A stretch of DNA of 64,000 bases from Bianquea renquensis (GCF_014384895.1 NZ_JACRSQ010000001.1:99493-163492); one strand, 5' to 3'. Counted from the stretch's first letter, positions 55,806-60,244 are shown. Numbers and translations: made by a program. The notes: generated by a model not told the origin, from the letters alone.

Positions 55806-55876
55806 ATTTGTGTTGGAGCGCCACAGATGGCTCTGGTGGCAGAATTTGCCCCATCGCTAGCGCTCCAGAACGGAGG
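55806..55876 (+). ncRNA. Conserved structured 5' leader (copy A) preceding the ABC-2 exporter operon; candidate cis-regulatory RNA or riboswitch
   Basis: About 90 % identical to 59358-59428. It has an outer helix GGAGCGC(55815-21)/GCGCTCC(55860-66). An alternative helix CTCC:GGAG would sequester the RBS GGAGG (55872-76) 5 nt before ATG 55882. Confidence 0.5.
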
Positions 55877-55881
55877 TTAGA

Positions 55882-56652
55882 ATGAGATTCTTGCGTCTAT
55901 TGAGGGAACATCTCAGACAGGCGCTATCCTGGCGGCTAGTCGTATGCGGGGTGGGCGTCACGCTTGTCATGACAGGAGCAATTTCGGGGTTGATCGTTGA
56001 TTCGTCAGAGCCTTCTGTCTGGTATATGTTGAATAAAAGCATATTGGGAAGTGGAGCATTCTCGACAGCGATCTGTATTTTGCCGGCGCTGACCTACTCG
56101 GTCACGCTGCCCATGGAGTGGAAGGCGTCCGCAACTCCCTATTGGATCGTGCGGACGGGGATTTCGCCCTACGCCATCTCAAAGATGATTGTCAGTGCCG
56201 TTGCAGGGTTGCTAACCCTTGCCGTTGGGATGCTGCTCTTTGTCGGGATTTTCAGCATCAGGTATCCTATATATATATCGTCATGCACCGACACTGCCTA
56301 TGACGCATTGCTGGCGGAGGGGAAGATCGCAGCTGGTTTGGCAGGCTATATCCTGAATTACAGTTTATCCGGGGCGCTGGCGGCTGCATGTGGTACGTTT
56401 GTGGCCACCTTTATCCCCGACCCGTTTGTGGCGGCCTCGTCGCCGCTCCTTGTGTATTTTACCTTGACGCGCCTGACATCGGGAAAGAACCTGCCAGGGA
56501 TCTTAAATCCCCTCTTCTGGATGGAAGGAATCGTGGCGACGTCCTCCGCTGGGCAGGCGATTTTGGAGAAGTTCATCGTGATTGCCATCCTATGTACCGG
56601 AATGAGTCTCGCAGCAATCTGGCAGATGAAACGGAGGGTGCGAAATGCATAG
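55882..56652 (+). CDS. ABC-2-type transporter permease (LanE/G-like, 6 TM)
   Basis: Polytopic hydrophobic 256-aa protein with no soluble domain, first of three genes ending in an ABC ATPase. Confidence 0.5.
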   Translation: MRFLRLLREHLRQALSWRLVVCGVGVTLVMTGAISGLIVDSSEPSVWYMLNKSILGSGAFSTAICILPALTYSVTLPMEWKASATPYWIVRTGISPYAISKMIVSAVAGLLTLAVGMLLFVGIFSIRYPIYISSCTDTAYDALLAEGKIAAGLAGYILNYSLSGALAAACGTFVATFIPDPFVAASSPLLVYFTLTRLTSGKNLPGILNPLFWMEGIVATSSAGQAILEKFIVIAILCTGMSLAAIWQMKRRVRNA

Positions 56653-57508
56653 CGTCAAGGCAATGGTTCTCTGTGTTAGAATCAGTCTATCCAAGCTTCT
56701 ATCCAATCCGAAAACCTATGTCATGTTGGCCATCATGGCGATTTTTCATTATTACAGCTATGCGCCCCTGGCGACTATCGCCAGATACTATGGGATATCC
56801 GTGACGCCGTGGGTATTCCCCTTCTACATGTCGAGGGCGCCGATGCTGACGGTGTTTGGGGGGCTGTGTATCTTACTGTTCTCCGATGCTCCCTTCCTAG
56901 ACGCCTATTCCCAGTTTATCATTGCGCGCTGTGGGCGGCGGCCCTTTATCGTAGGCCAAGTTCTGTATATCCTGGCCGCTTCCTTTCTCTTTACGGTGTG
57001 TATGGTTTTGCTGTCGCTGCTGTATATCCTGCCAGTGATGGAGTGGAGCACCGACTGGGGGACGCTGCTGAATACGCTGGCGCAGTCGTCGTTAGAGGTT
57101 CGGGAGCAGACAGGCGTGACCCTGTCCATCAGTGTCAGTGAGGAGTTTCTACAGCTAGTATCGCCCATAAGGGCGATGTCGGTGGCATTCCTCTGCATGT
57201 GGCTGGTGACAGCCTTCCTCGGACTCATAATAAGCTTCTTCAATGTGGTGGTGACGAAGATGAGTGGAGTTGTAGCGGCAGGGGTGCTGGTGAGTCTCTC
57301 GTTTTTTGCCGTCTATTGGGGTGCTAACAGCATCGGGCGATGGCTGCTGTTTATATCCCCGGTGTCCTGGAGCCGGATGGGCGACTTGGATTGGACTTAC
57401 AGTGGAATGTGGCCGTCGCCGACATACGCAGTGGTGGTGCTGACAGTGGGGATTGTCCTGTTGGGGACCGGCAGCGCGATCAAATTTTGCCGGCGGGATC
57501 TGAACTGA
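56645..57508 (+). CDS. ABC-2-type transporter permease (second subunit)
   Basis: 287-aa polytopic membrane protein overlapping the upstream gene by 8 nt and followed by the ATPase. Confidence 0.5.
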   Translation: MHSVKAMVLCVRISLSKLLSNPKTYVMLAIMAIFHYYSYAPLATIARYYGISVTPWVFPFYMSRAPMLTVFGGLCILLFSDAPFLDAYSQFIIARCGRRPFIVGQVLYILAASFLFTVCMVLLSLLYILPVMEWSTDWGTLLNTLAQSSLEVREQTGVTLSISVSEEFLQLVSPIRAMSVAFLCMWLVTAFLGLIISFFNVVVTKMSGVVAAGVLVSLSFFAVYWGANSIGRWLLFISPVSWSRMGDLDWTYSGMWPSPTYAVVVLTVGIVLLGTGSAIKFCRRDLN

Positions 57509-57526
57509 GAGAAGGGAGAGAGGAAA

Positions 57527-58652: not shown

Positions 58653-59245
58653 TTGTCCTGGTCTGTATAGTCTATGGATGCAGCCTGCATCAATATGGAA
58701 AGGCTTACCGTGCCGCCGCGGCGCGGGAAATCCGGGTGACGGATGAGACAAAAGCCATGGGAACCATCTATTCGGCGCTGAAAGAGGAAATCCAGATTTT
58801 CCCGGTGGATGCCAGGCAGACGGAGTATACCTTTGAAGACTCCTGGGGGGCCTCCCGATCCTACGGCGGTGACCGCCAGCATATGGGGACGGATATCATG
58901 GACACGCAGAATAGCAGGGGGCGGCTTCGGGTTCGCTCGATGACGGACGGTGTTGTGACCTGCGTGGGATGGAATCAGCTTGGAGGCTGGCGCGTGGGGA
59001 TCACCTCCGACAGCGGCGTATATTACTATTACGCGCATTTGGCCTCCTACGCCTCGGGGTTGGCTGTGGGAAATGAGGTCAAGGCTGGAGAGTGGATCGG
59101 TATGATGGGGGACTCGGGATACGGGGAAGAGGGAACCACAGGACAGTTCGCTGTTCATCTTCACGTTGGCATTCTGTTGGATGAACAGGGAAAGGGCGAA
59201 GAATGGGTGAATCCCTATCCATTCCTGAAATCACTAATTTCATAG
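58574..59245 (+). CDS. Secreted or membrane-anchored M23 (LytM-domain) metallopeptidase
   Basis: HxxxD (..RQHMGTDIMD..) and HxH (..FAVHLHVGI..) M23 active-site motifs and ..YAHL... The start is uncertain. ATG 58574 (the last repeat unit) gives a basic N-region plus hydrophobic anchor LFCLVLVCIVYGC. The ORF track extends it through all four repeats to 58325 (TTG). No convincing RBS is present at any candidate. Confidence 0.7.
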   Translation: MEKSAGRRIKTKKRRFFQSSRSELFCLVLVCIVYGCSLHQYGKAYRAAAAREIRVTDETKAMGTIYSALKEEIQIFPVDARQTEYTFEDSWGASRSYGGDRQHMGTDIMDTQNSRGRLRVRSMTDGVVTCVGWNQLGGWRVGITSDSGVYYYYAHLASYASGLAVGNEVKAGEWIGMMGDSGYGEEGTTGQFAVHLHVGILLDEQGKGEEWVNPYPFLKSLIS

Positions 59246-59357
59246 GCAAGAAAACTGAGAAATCTCTTTACGAACGAACAATCTCTTGTTATAATTGAAT
59301 CAAAAGGGGAAGCAAAAGCGGGAAATGTCGGAATACGGCGTATGAAGGTTAGTGTGA

Positions 59358-59428
59358 ATTTGTGCCGGAGCGTCACAGATAGCTCTGGGGGCAGAATTTG
59401 CCTCTGTCGCTAACGCTCCAGAATGGAG
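59358..59428 (+). ncRNA. Conserved structured 5' leader (copy B) preceding the RelQ-like alarmone synthetase; candidate cis-regulatory RNA or riboswitch
   Basis: Homologous to 55806-55876. The outer helix is GGAGCGT/ACGCTCC (a C-G to T-A compensatory change relative to copy A). CTCC-AGAAT-GGAG can sequester the RBS GGAG (59425-28) 6 nt before ATG 59435. Confidence 0.5.
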
Positions 59429-59434
59429 ATTACT

Positions 59435-60244
59435 ATGGAGATACAGCAGTGGAGGGAATTTTTAATCCCTTACGAGCAAGCAGTGCAAGAGCTTGTGATC
59501 AAATTTCAGAATATTATTCGCGAGTATACAAGCCTTGGACAGTATTCTCCCATTGAACAGGTAAATGGAAGAGTCAAAAAGATATCCAGTATTTTAGAAA
59601 AAGTGGACAAGAAAAATATGGAACTCAGCGACGTGGAAGAGCGGATCGAGGATATCGCCGGCGTTCGAATTATATGCCAATTTGTGGAGGATATCGGGAC
59701 AGTGGTGGACCTCATCCGAGGCCGGCAGGATATGGAGATTATCGCAGAGATTAACTATGTGGCGCACAAGAAGGCGAGCGGGTACAGGAGTTATCACATC
59801 ATTGTAAAGTATCCGGTTCAGACAGTCTTCGGCCGGAGAATCGTCAAAGCGGAGATTCAGATTCGAACGCTGGCCATGAATTTCTGGGCGACCATCGAAC
59901 ACTCCCTGCGGTATAAGTACCAGGGAGGACTCCCGCAGGATGTCCAGGATCGGCTGCAAAAGGCGGCGGAGGCGGCGTACCACATTGACCGCGAGATGTC
60001 CTCGATCCGAAGCGAGATCATCGATGCGCAGGAGGCGTTTAAGGAAAAGTCCAATCTGGTAGGCGATATTCTGAGCAATATCGAGAATATCTATCTGGGA
60101 AGCGAGAAGATCGCCATGCGGGAAGCCCAGGCAGAGCTATTTGAATTGATACGGGAAAATAATCTAGACAAGATGCGCTCCTTTGGGGCCAGAATTGACG
60201 ATGTGGCGCAGCACCACGGCGTGCAGAGTCTATCGGATTTCTGA
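59435..60244 (+). CDS. relQ: Small alarmone synthetase (RelQ/RelP-type GTP pyrophosphokinase, synthetase-only)
   Basis: ..GRVKK..SI.EK...K......DI.GVRIICQF..D.......I......I......Y......GYRS.H.IV.. and ..IQIRT.AM..WA..EH...YK.. RelA/SpoT synthetase-domain motifs without a hydrolase or TGS domain. The start is set at ATG 59435 (a conserved RBS shared with copy A); ATG 59423 is the alternative. Confidence 0.8.
   Translation: MEIQQWREFLIPYEQAVQELVIKFQNIIREYTSLGQYSPIEQVNGRVKKISSILEKVDKKNMELSDVEERIEDIAGVRIICQFVEDIGTVVDLIRGRQDMEIIAEINYVAHKKASGYRSYHIIVKYPVQTVFGRRIVKAEIQIRTLAMNFWATIEHSLRYKYQGGLPQDVQDRLQKAAEAAYHIDREMSSIRSEIIDAQEAFKEKSNLVGDILSNIENIYLGSEKIAMREAQAELFELIRENNLDKMRSFGARIDDVAQHHGVQSLSDF

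Follow-up and report, generated by a model that had tools for sequence, protein, structure and literature searches.

Paired leaders of a permease gene and a relQ-like gene in Bianquea renquensis belong to a dispersed family of structured leader elements

In a 64,000-nucleotide stretch of the Bianquea renquensis genome (GCF_014384895.1, NZ_JACRSQ010000001.1:99493-163492; referred to as the window, with positions counted from its first nucleotide), two similar leaders precede unrelated genes. Copy A (55806-55884) runs into the start codon of a permease gene (ATG at 55882) and copy B (59358-59437) into that of a gene for a RelQ-like small alarmone synthetase (ATG at 59435). A preliminary description of this DNA interpreted them as an unclassified translational riboswitch controlling an ABC-2 exporter together with the alarmone synthetase or, alternatively, as the flanks of one 3.5-kb insertion that had copied a native relQ leader. 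This raised the question what kind of element the two leaders represent. They are not a riboswitch coupling an exporter to an alarmone synthetase but members of a new family of dispersed leader elements, and we consider it somewhat probable that these are horizontally spread insertion elements or leader repeats that replace the ribosome-binding site (RBS) of the gene they precede.

The homology of copies A and B was borne out by a BLAST alignment (86% identity over 71 nt, E=1e-9), which makes the earlier figure of about 90% slightly generous; their core sequences are 85% identical. A repeat finder returned the same two blocks as direct repeats 3552 bp apart. A 36-nt consensus had exactly 2 matches in the 64-kb window and 0 in 100 shuffles, and a covariance model (CM) run with filters off detected no extra copy in the other ~55 kb. 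The compensatory change reported for the outer helix (P1) was also found: GGAGCGC/GCGCUCC in copy A corresponds to GGAGCGU/ACGCUCC in copy B, a C-G to U-A exchange within GGAGCGY/RCGCUCC (alignment columns 27-67, with U-A six times and C-G once). The statement that the leaders resemble no known riboswitch class agrees with the Rfam scans of both copies. At the gathering score, Rfam 15 returned only a T-box elsewhere in the window and no match to copy A or B, and scans of A, B and the subfamilies 1 to 4 described below at permissive E-values gave only noise far below threshold. A match to ARRPOF was dismissed, as it reached 20 bits compared to a gathering score of 127. Regarding the proposed ABC-2 exporter, the ATPase matches ABC_tran, whereas the two permeases have no Pfam match and the label "ABC-2" is unverified.

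Scanning of human-gut metagenome contigs with a pattern composed of the junction nucleotides and the GGAG/CUCC ends recovered A and B again, together with new copies before vanW, a HAD-type hydrolase gene (directly after the gene of a 724-aa helicase), a TRAP-type permease gene and a DUF5107 gene. The vanW copy is located on the same contigs as A and B, so that three copies lie within 11.5 kb, all on the plus strand and each ending at the called start codon. The helicase beside the HAD copy and the SGNH hydrolase beside the DUF5107 copy cluster with B. renquensis proteins, and the helicase is encoded on the same 338,913-bp contig as RelQ. The TRAP copy resides on a contig without species assignment; its core is identical to the vanW core and its flanks are unrelated. 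At least five or six elements of this kind are present in B. renquensis, with the same orientation throughout. These copies form subfamily 1, whose core (ATTTGTG...GGAGR) shows 85-100% identity, with A and B as the most diverged pair (85%), and whose members all end with CGCUCCAGAAY-GGAGR-N5-AUG. Two subfamily-1 patterns, both of which fit copies A, B, vanW, HAD, TRAP and DUF5107, gave 0 matches in representative genome contigs, a weak negative in that the copies of B. renquensis itself were likewise not returned; its source genome is probably absent from this collection or masked. A narrow distribution, inferred at one stage from zero-match genome scans, was withdrawn, as the patterns fit subfamily 1 only. 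Two subfamily-1 patterns had 0 matches in viral contigs as well, and no element match was obtained in the plasmid collection.

More distant forms were found in other taxa. A blastn search of GenBank phage records with the long form uncovered subfamily 2 on three faecal contigs of Gallintestinimicrobium sp. (Lachnospiraceae), where copies lie before enolase and before two genes that follow MBOAT acyltransferase genes; in 10 Gallintestinimicrobium strains the enolase copy is fixed, with 98-100% conservation. The three contigs (MT837007.1, MT836788.1 and MT838414.1) are labelled "UNVERIFIED: Bacteriophage sp." and come from a faecal virome, but they encode FeoB, IscS, enolase and MBOAT proteins and are Gallintestinimicrobium chromosome, not phage. 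Subfamily 3 is located between a two-component system and an ABC ATPase on an IMG/VR contig of 35% GC, the 1 real match among 112 matches of the viral-contig pattern TATTTGTGCC-N7-TCACAAA; the other 111 were rejected as an unrelated conserved phage gene or chance. A pattern for the hairpin H1 (see below) returned from the viral contigs the 35% GC contig again and six contigs of one phage, and two further viral-contig patterns added nothing. In the phage, a shorter form (subfamily 4) lies in the gap between a gpZ-like minor tail gene and the next open reading frame (ORF), downstream of the prohead protease and major capsid genes. Altogether, the element was found at 11 loci in at least four lineages with host GC contents of 35-52%, its identity within a genome being 85-100%. 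The search for homologues suggested in the preliminary description thus yielded further copies with covariation, but their gene contexts are unrelated and do not form one coherent set. The idea of a riboswitch dedicated to the exporter and RelQ has to be abandoned, as at least 11 genes without a common function are preceded by this element. The motif is not confined to the two copies, and P1 does covary.

The local history points in the same direction. All close RelQ relatives that were found (62-68% identity) have rnhA directly against relQ or overlapping it, followed by nrdR-addB-addA-vanW, an arrangement without room for a leader. The covariance model (R1) had no match at the relQ loci of the relatives, and their vanW genes have an 80-nt leader without the element. 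In B. renquensis (Clostridia, Bianqueaceae), to whose proteins the RelQ, permease, 378-aa lipoprotein and VanW sequences correspond exactly or almost exactly, about 5.9 kb separates rnhA and relQ. A lipoprotein-permease-permease-ATPase module likewise follows rnhA in a related species, in tandem duplication, and neither of its two orthologous permease operons has the element before the permease gene: one junction reads TAA-22 nt-GGAGATAGAATG there and TAA-TCGGATG-element-GGAGGTTAGAATG in the window. Since the element is absent from both loci in relatives, the leader is, as judged by sequence comparison, native to neither relQ nor the permease operon. This also disposes of the alternative that A and B flank one 3.5-kb insertion copying a native relQ leader, because relQ had none and other copies are unlinked. 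Compared to GCA_019423285.1, the relQ leader has six substitutions (59310, 59320, 59332, 59334, 59336 and 59380), while a single substitution, besides two indels, was counted over ~4.3 kb of flanking coding DNA. The cluster could reflect a local hot spot, a gene-conversion tract or an assembly artefact of a metagenome-assembled genome. An argument for conservation drawn from this genome (1 change in the core, 5 in the upstream leader) was discarded because the numbers are too small. The element-free permease leader of the related species contains, at 7895-7915 of its contig, GGTGGGCAGAAT, which is like GGTGGCAGAAT in hairpin P3 of copy A, either by chance or as a trace of ancestry.

The element is about 85-155 nt long and in its full-length form consists of a left end, the hairpin H1, the hairpin P0, the helix P1 enclosing the hairpin P3, and a tail with the Shine-Dalgarno sequence (SD). 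The left end is TA(G/A)TGTGA, with stop codons in TAGTGTGA; H1 is a 16-bp A/U-rich palindrome, GUGUGAAAAAUAAGCG-UGAU-CGCUUAUUUUUCACAC; P0 is formed by GCUAUUUGUG and CACAAA(G)UAGC; P1 results from pairing of the 9-10-nt P0 loop with a strand 3-5 nt upstream of the SD; and P3 is variable, with 6 to about 17 bp. The tail reads RGAAUGGAGR-N5-AUG, or GAAAAGGGGA-N4-AUG in subfamily 4. Copy A (Table 1) fills the whole gap from the stop codon of a 378-aa lipoprotein gene (TAA, 55760-55762) to the permease ATG, and its H1 is a degenerate homologue of the palindrome of the other copies. The short copies (B, HAD and vanW) have lost most or all of H1; in copy B, from which most of it is deleted, the left end TAGTGTGA is joined directly to P0. 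Between subfamilies 1, 2 and 3, identity is 88-92% in the 5' block, which comprises stop codons, H1 and P0, and 54-64% in the 3' block.

Selection on pairing, postulated from the single compensatory change, proved to be well founded, as P1 was kept through complete sequence turnover in four subfamilies: GGAGCGU/ACGCUCC (copy A, GGAGCGC/GCGCUCC), CCGCAGGCGU/RCGCCUGCGG, GAGAACGU/ACGUUCUC and GUGCAU/AUGCAC, the last read by eye in subfamily 4. RNAalifold recovered H1 and P0, with four pairs changed on both sides (e.g., A-U to U-A in H1 and U-A to A-U in P0), and in the H1 alignment the pairs at columns 7-42 and 19-30 show changes of both partners. In the P0+P1+P3 model of subfamily 1, 91.9% of cells are paired, and its covariation score was reached by 1 of 500 shuffles. 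The sequences clearly indicate that pairing is under selection, either as RNA or as single-stranded DNA. P1 sequence, P3 length and one extra hairpin differ between subfamilies. Instead of the inner hairpin TCTG/CAGA of the preliminary description, covariation favours GGKGGC/GCCNCY (U.G to G.U). The inner helix P2 of that description (GAURG/CYRUC) is supported among A, B and the GCA_019423285.1 variant (U-A, U.G and C-G); being broken in the other subfamily-1 copies (77% of cells paired), it was dropped in favour of P0 and P3. A helix CCGGAGC/GCUCUGG is compatible and 100% paired but has no change on both sides.

A leader peptide or small ORF through the element was rejected, since reading frames are not kept between copies and A and B differ by an indel. 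A GUG-UGA start-stop mini-ORF is present at the left end of most copies and lost in one, and no conserved -35/-10 pair was seen on inspection of the element interior. Subfamilies 2 and 3 and most copies of subfamily 1 have a second, in-frame ATG 12 nt upstream of the start codon (AUG GAG xxx xxx AUG); this upstream ATG has no SD of its own and is replaced by ACG in copy A. At such starts (e.g., window positions 59423-59437 and 55870-55884), ORF finders may call genes four codons too long.

SD sequestration was central to the riboswitch proposal. The motif CUCC(A)...(U)GGAG, 5-6 nt before the start codons, is indeed present in A, B and all other subfamily-1 copies, the CUCC/GGAG helix being invariant and 100% paired. 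Pseudoknot-free folding predicts the SD to be mostly paired in 5 of 7 subfamily-1 sequences. In this subfamily, the CUCC of the P1 3' strand would pair either with the P0 loop, leaving the SD free, or with the SD, masking it. A switch between P1 and SD masking, following the logic of the preliminary description for A and B, is therefore possible in the structural model, and subfamily-1 copies may tune translation of the permease gene, relQ and other downstream genes in a common way. In subfamily 2, CUGC stands in place of CUCC, and folding predicts an unpaired SD for 2 of 3 copies; the tail of subfamily 4 differs and has no CUCC anti-SD. Since the motif is lost in these two subfamilies, sequestration appears, on present alignments, to be a side property of one subfamily and not the conserved core. 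The downstream genes have no function in common, which makes a dedicated ligand sensor unlikely; the element may act as a common structured leader, insulating translation or fixing its level.

The position of the element relative to genes is constant. At all 11 loci it has the orientation of the downstream gene, with 4-5 nt between its end and the ATG. Copies A, HAD and TRAP lie between cistrons, copy B in a 5' untranslated region (UTR). An SD-like GGAG, GAGG or AAGG is present 0-4 nt left of TAGTG at 9 of the 11 loci, compared to a background GGAG frequency of 0.011 per nt. At the HAD and TRAP loci, in-silico deletion of TAGTG...GGAGR brought the start codon back into an ATGA overlap with the stop codon of the upstream ORF. 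Deletion by inspection at the enolase, MBOAT-partner, DUF5107, relQ, vanW and ABC loci left an ordinary 5-8 nt between SD and ATG. The right-hand SDs vary little, most copies having GGAGA, whereas the left-hand ones show the variation of native SDs. From the left SD-like motifs, the deletions and the uniform right SD, we infer that the element was inserted into the original SD-to-ATG spacer, which would have left the old SD stranded on its left. Its 5' stop codons would end upstream translation and its own SD (GGAGR) would restart it, which would explain why insertion is tolerated in operons and 5' UTRs. The leader element has probably been horizontally mobile.

Several observations weigh against such an insertion. 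The ends TAGTG... and ...GGAGR are not inverted repeats, and no terminal inverted repeats were found. There is no clean target-site duplication, the left GGAGR-like motif being offset by 0-4 nt and different from the right one. Nor is any copy linked to a transposase or recombinase. No empty-site strain was seen among 6-10 strains per species, every copy being fixed, and filled and empty sites were found between distant species only. The left boundary varies, H1 has internal deletions, and some copies share a few flanking bases, e.g., two copies together with a helicase 3' end; this pattern hints at recombination or gene conversion more than at a clean transposition event. No known mechanism of insertion accounts for the constant 5-nt spacing before the ATG. 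Moreover, 11 loci were recovered in all, horizontal spread is read solely from 88-92% sequence identity across hosts of 35-52% GC, and the strong, repeated covariation of P1 fits a selected RNA function equally well.

That last point leads to the view that the element is genuinely a cis-regulatory RNA (a riboswitch, or an RNA targeted by a protein or small RNA) copied before many genes to form one post-transcriptional regulon, with the P0/P1/P3 fold as sensor and P1 versus the SD hairpin as expression platform. The full covariation of P1 in four subfamilies would be expected of such an RNA, as would the H-type pseudoknot layout of P0 and P1 in subfamily 1 (loop 1 of 2 nt, loop 2 of 0 nt) and the mostly paired SD predicted there, and the Neisseria REP2 repeat common to 14 contact-induced genes provides a precedent. 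We nevertheless consider it quite unlikely. Enolase, phage tail, HAD, TRAP, vanW, relQ and ABC transporter genes have no common function, the orthologous relQ, vanW and permease loci of relatives lack the element, the CUCC anti-SD is lost in subfamilies 2 and 4, and there is no Rfam match. The conserved nucleotides lie in helices (H1, P0), while riboswitches usually have variable helices and conserved junctions; P1 sequence, P3 length and the extra hairpin vary freely between subfamilies; and in subfamily 2 all 10 nt of the P0 loop are paired, so that a pseudoknot would have no linker. If pairing is instead selected in single-stranded DNA, the element might be purely selfish, like miniature inverted-repeat transposable elements (MITEs) or REP sequences, with H1 and P0/P1 recognized by a Y1/HUH-type transposase (IS200/IS605 or RAYT type) that targets sites beside SD sequences, RNA effects being incidental. 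Near-identical copies within a species and occurrence in a phage and in hosts that differ widely in GC content fit this idea; hairpins are kept by covariation, as at IS200/IS605 ends according to a review; strand-specific insertion at an asymmetric target (GGAG) would give a constant orientation; and Y1 transposases are active in Gallintestinimicrobium, where two strains are filled and one is empty. However, the ends of the resident IS200-like element share no sequence with the leader element, no copy has an adjacent transposase, and the element itself shows no empty/filled polymorphism among the strains sampled. A target-adjacent pattern is not seen either, because the left GGAG spacing varies between 0 and 4 nt and the ATG distance is fixed, and an SD at working distance plus 5' stop codons suggest selection at the level of expression. 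A purely selfish origin therefore seems unlikely to us.

Far less credible still, indeed highly improbable, is that the leaders are direct-repeat recombination sites (attC-like, for cassette excision or exchange) of the 3.5-kb exporter and M23 peptidase segment, or relics of a local duplication. It is true that A and B are direct repeats flanking 3552 bp, that three copies lie within 11.5 kb and that the rnhA-relQ segment is absent in relatives. Yet other copies are found before single housekeeping genes whose synteny is conserved (vanW, enolase) and on other contigs, no contig has the deleted A/B hybrid arrangement, inspection revealed no RYYYAAC/GTTRRRY core sites, the window has no adjacent integrase, and A and B are the most diverged pair (85%). 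The duplication-relic version is ruled out by copies at unlinked loci and in other genera. Returning to insertion with replacement of the RBS, a more elaborate version would see in the element a horizontally mobile and self-contained "translation-start cassette" that would insert exactly between SD and start codon, end upstream translation, form a pseudoknotted leader whose P1 is free to change in sequence, and restart translation from its own SD. In this way, a common post-transcriptional control or insulation would be imposed on genes for alarmone synthetase, enolase, transporters and phage tail proteins, with phage-borne spread between bacterial families and a targeting that measures distance from the start codon. 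Taken with all its parts, this version is rather unlikely.

The features of the window are listed in Table 1. Loop and enclosed hairpin of each P0 and P1 are given there, and the promoter-like site upstream of copy B, the sole good one near it, places this copy inside the relQ 5' UTR.

Table 1. Features of the leader elements and their surroundings in the window (coordinates are window positions)
Feature	Position	Strand	Details
Copy A, long form	55763..55881	+	CM 97.5 bits
Copy A H1, degenerate A/U-rich hairpin	55769..55797	+	GAAAAAUAAG...CUUACUUUU; H1 alignment has 14 consensus pairs
Copy A P0	55801..55833	+	GGGCUAUUUGUG (55801-55812) pairs with CACAGAUGGCUC (55822-55833); 9-nt loop UUGGAGCGC is the 5' strand of P1
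Copy A P1, long-range helix	55813..55868	+	UUGGAGCGC (55813-55821) pairs with GCGCUCCAG (55860-55868); encloses P3 (55834-55853)
Copy A SD GGAGG, 5-nt spacer and permease start codon	55872..55884	+	gene called from ATG
Copy B, short form, in relQ 5' UTR	59350..59434	+	CM 102.9 bits
Copy B P0	59358..59380	+	AUUUGUG (59358-59364) pairs with CACAGAU (59374-59380); loop CCGGAGCGU
Copy B P1	59367..59419	+	GGAGCGU (59367-59373) pairs with ACGCUCC (59413-59419); encloses P3 (59386-59406)
Copy B possible SD-sequestering hairpin CUCCA/UGGAG	59416-59420 / 59424-59428	+	
Copy B SD GGAGA (59425-59429), 5-nt spacer and relQ ATG (59435)	within 59416..59437	+	
Promoter-like TTTACG-17-TATAAT with TG upstream	59267..59295	+	60 nt upstream of copy B, outside the element
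Genes between rnhA and relQ, absent there in nearest relQ relatives	54103..59245	+	137-aa ORF, 378-aa lipoprotein, two permeases, ABC ATPase, 81-bp tandem array, M23 peptidase
relQ-like small alarmone synthetase gene (RelA_SpoT domain)	59435..60244	+	exact match to WP_177720158.1, Bianquea renquensis

The closest described kind of element is the Neisseria REP2 repeat and the IR-A/IR-B repeats of Borrelia plasmids, i.e., dispersed repeats of ~120-150 bp that contain RBS and ATG, precede unrelated ORFs, lack terminal inverted repeats, have internal stem-loops and are of unknown origin and mode of spread; 14 contact-induced Neisseria genes share one REP2 repeat (PMC3184786). The likeness is one of kind and not of descent, the phylum being different: the clostridial element, too, is multicopy before unrelated ORFs, includes the RBS and has internal stem-loops (H1, P0 and P3). 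REP2 carries its own promoter, whereas the clostridial element has none, promoters lying upstream or the element being intercistronic. Unlike REP2 as reviewed, it also has a left SD-like motif, 5' stop codons and a covarying long-range helix, and it occurs in several families of Clostridia and in a phage. More than 4000 families of "putative mobile promoters" have been catalogued, defined by 50-100 nt of upstream sequence with at least 80% identity before non-homologous genes, and about 6% of the families cross genera (Matus-Garcia et al. 2012, PMC3488235; PMC3575422). Similar upstream sequence before non-homologous genes is a trait of our element as well, but mobile promoters are an operational similarity class whose definition does not include structure, RBS replacement or a fixed ATG distance.

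MITEs and ERIC, Correia, BOX and REP/BIME sequences are likewise short, multicopy, hairpin-forming and co-transcribed, and can alter mRNA stability or translation. They have terminal inverted repeats, which the element lacks, and/or target duplications, of which it shows no clean case, and occur in both orientations at variable gene distance, whereas the element has one orientation. Elements derived from IS200/IS605 (PATE) and REP/RAYT systems are recognized by ends like those of a resident Y1 element, a correspondence not found in Gallintestinimicrobium; integron attC sites are defined by core sites and integrase-linked cassette arrays, and inspection of the element showed no core sites. In the 5' region of IS200, Beuzon et al. 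(1999) reportedly described a terminator hairpin and, after it, a stem-loop masking the RBS of the transposase. Our element has the same succession of parts (a terminator-like hairpin at the left end, a structured leader able to mask the SD, then SD and ATG), but this is an architectural analogy only, as no transposase gene follows our element. With translational riboswitches it shares a covariation-supported structure (P1 in four versions, H1 and P0) and, in subfamily 1, a CUCC that can pair with either a distal GGAG strand or the SD; it differs in having no conserved aptamer core, coherent gene set or broad vertical distribution, and no sequestor outside subfamily 1.

If insertion with RBS replacement is correct, the element would be a tractable Gram-positive example of ready-made leader/RBS modules spreading between genes and species, and would bear on the question of spread left open for Neisseria REP2 and the mobile promoters. 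B. renquensis is a named species with a RefSeq genome and may be culturable, and copies of the element precede genes that are easily assayed, relQ and enolase among them. From its boundaries, the element seems to insert a fixed number of nucleotides from the start codon, a behaviour that known transposition mechanisms do not account for. For motif hunting, the case calls for caution, as a pair of nearly identical leaders that differ by a compensatory exchange may turn out to be copies of a dispersed repeat and not a riboswitch.

Further observations concern the surroundings of the copies. The IS200-like element (Y1_Tnp) of Gallintestinimicrobium is polymorphic among strains at a site upstream of feoA/feoB, two strains being filled (about 2060-2860 and about 3478-4253) and one empty (about 2905-2915); its own leader has an obvious RBS-masking stem, AAATCACCTTTCC...GGAAAGGTGATTT. 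On the contig of the species related to B. renquensis, near-identical ~560-bp direct repeats (5667-6230 and 10305-10860) flank the tandem duplication of the module (136aa-376aa-permease-permease-ABC), the small ORF being disrupted in the first copy, and on a second related contig the second module is succeeded by genes for an integrase and an S24 peptidase. Just beyond the end of the window, B. renquensis has a 117-aa TauE-like gene (15050-15403 on its contig) between the addB-like and addA-like helicase-nuclease genes, which in relatives are adjacent without it. Within the window, a full-length T-box leader at 13691-13895 (plus strand; RF00230, 98.3 bits) was the sole Rfam family reaching the gathering score. 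Between the ABC ATPase and M23 peptidase genes (58250-58652), an 81-bp unit is present in ~4-5 tandem copies, each with a hairpin ATCCGCCGGGAGGCGGAT with GGAGG in its loop, an ATG and 27 in-frame codons (MKKRRFFQSSRSELF...); the array therefore reiterates the RBS, start codon and N-terminus of the M23 lipoprotein. Its copy number appears to vary between strains, as the M23 ORF is called with 240 or 267 aa and the intergenic length varies.

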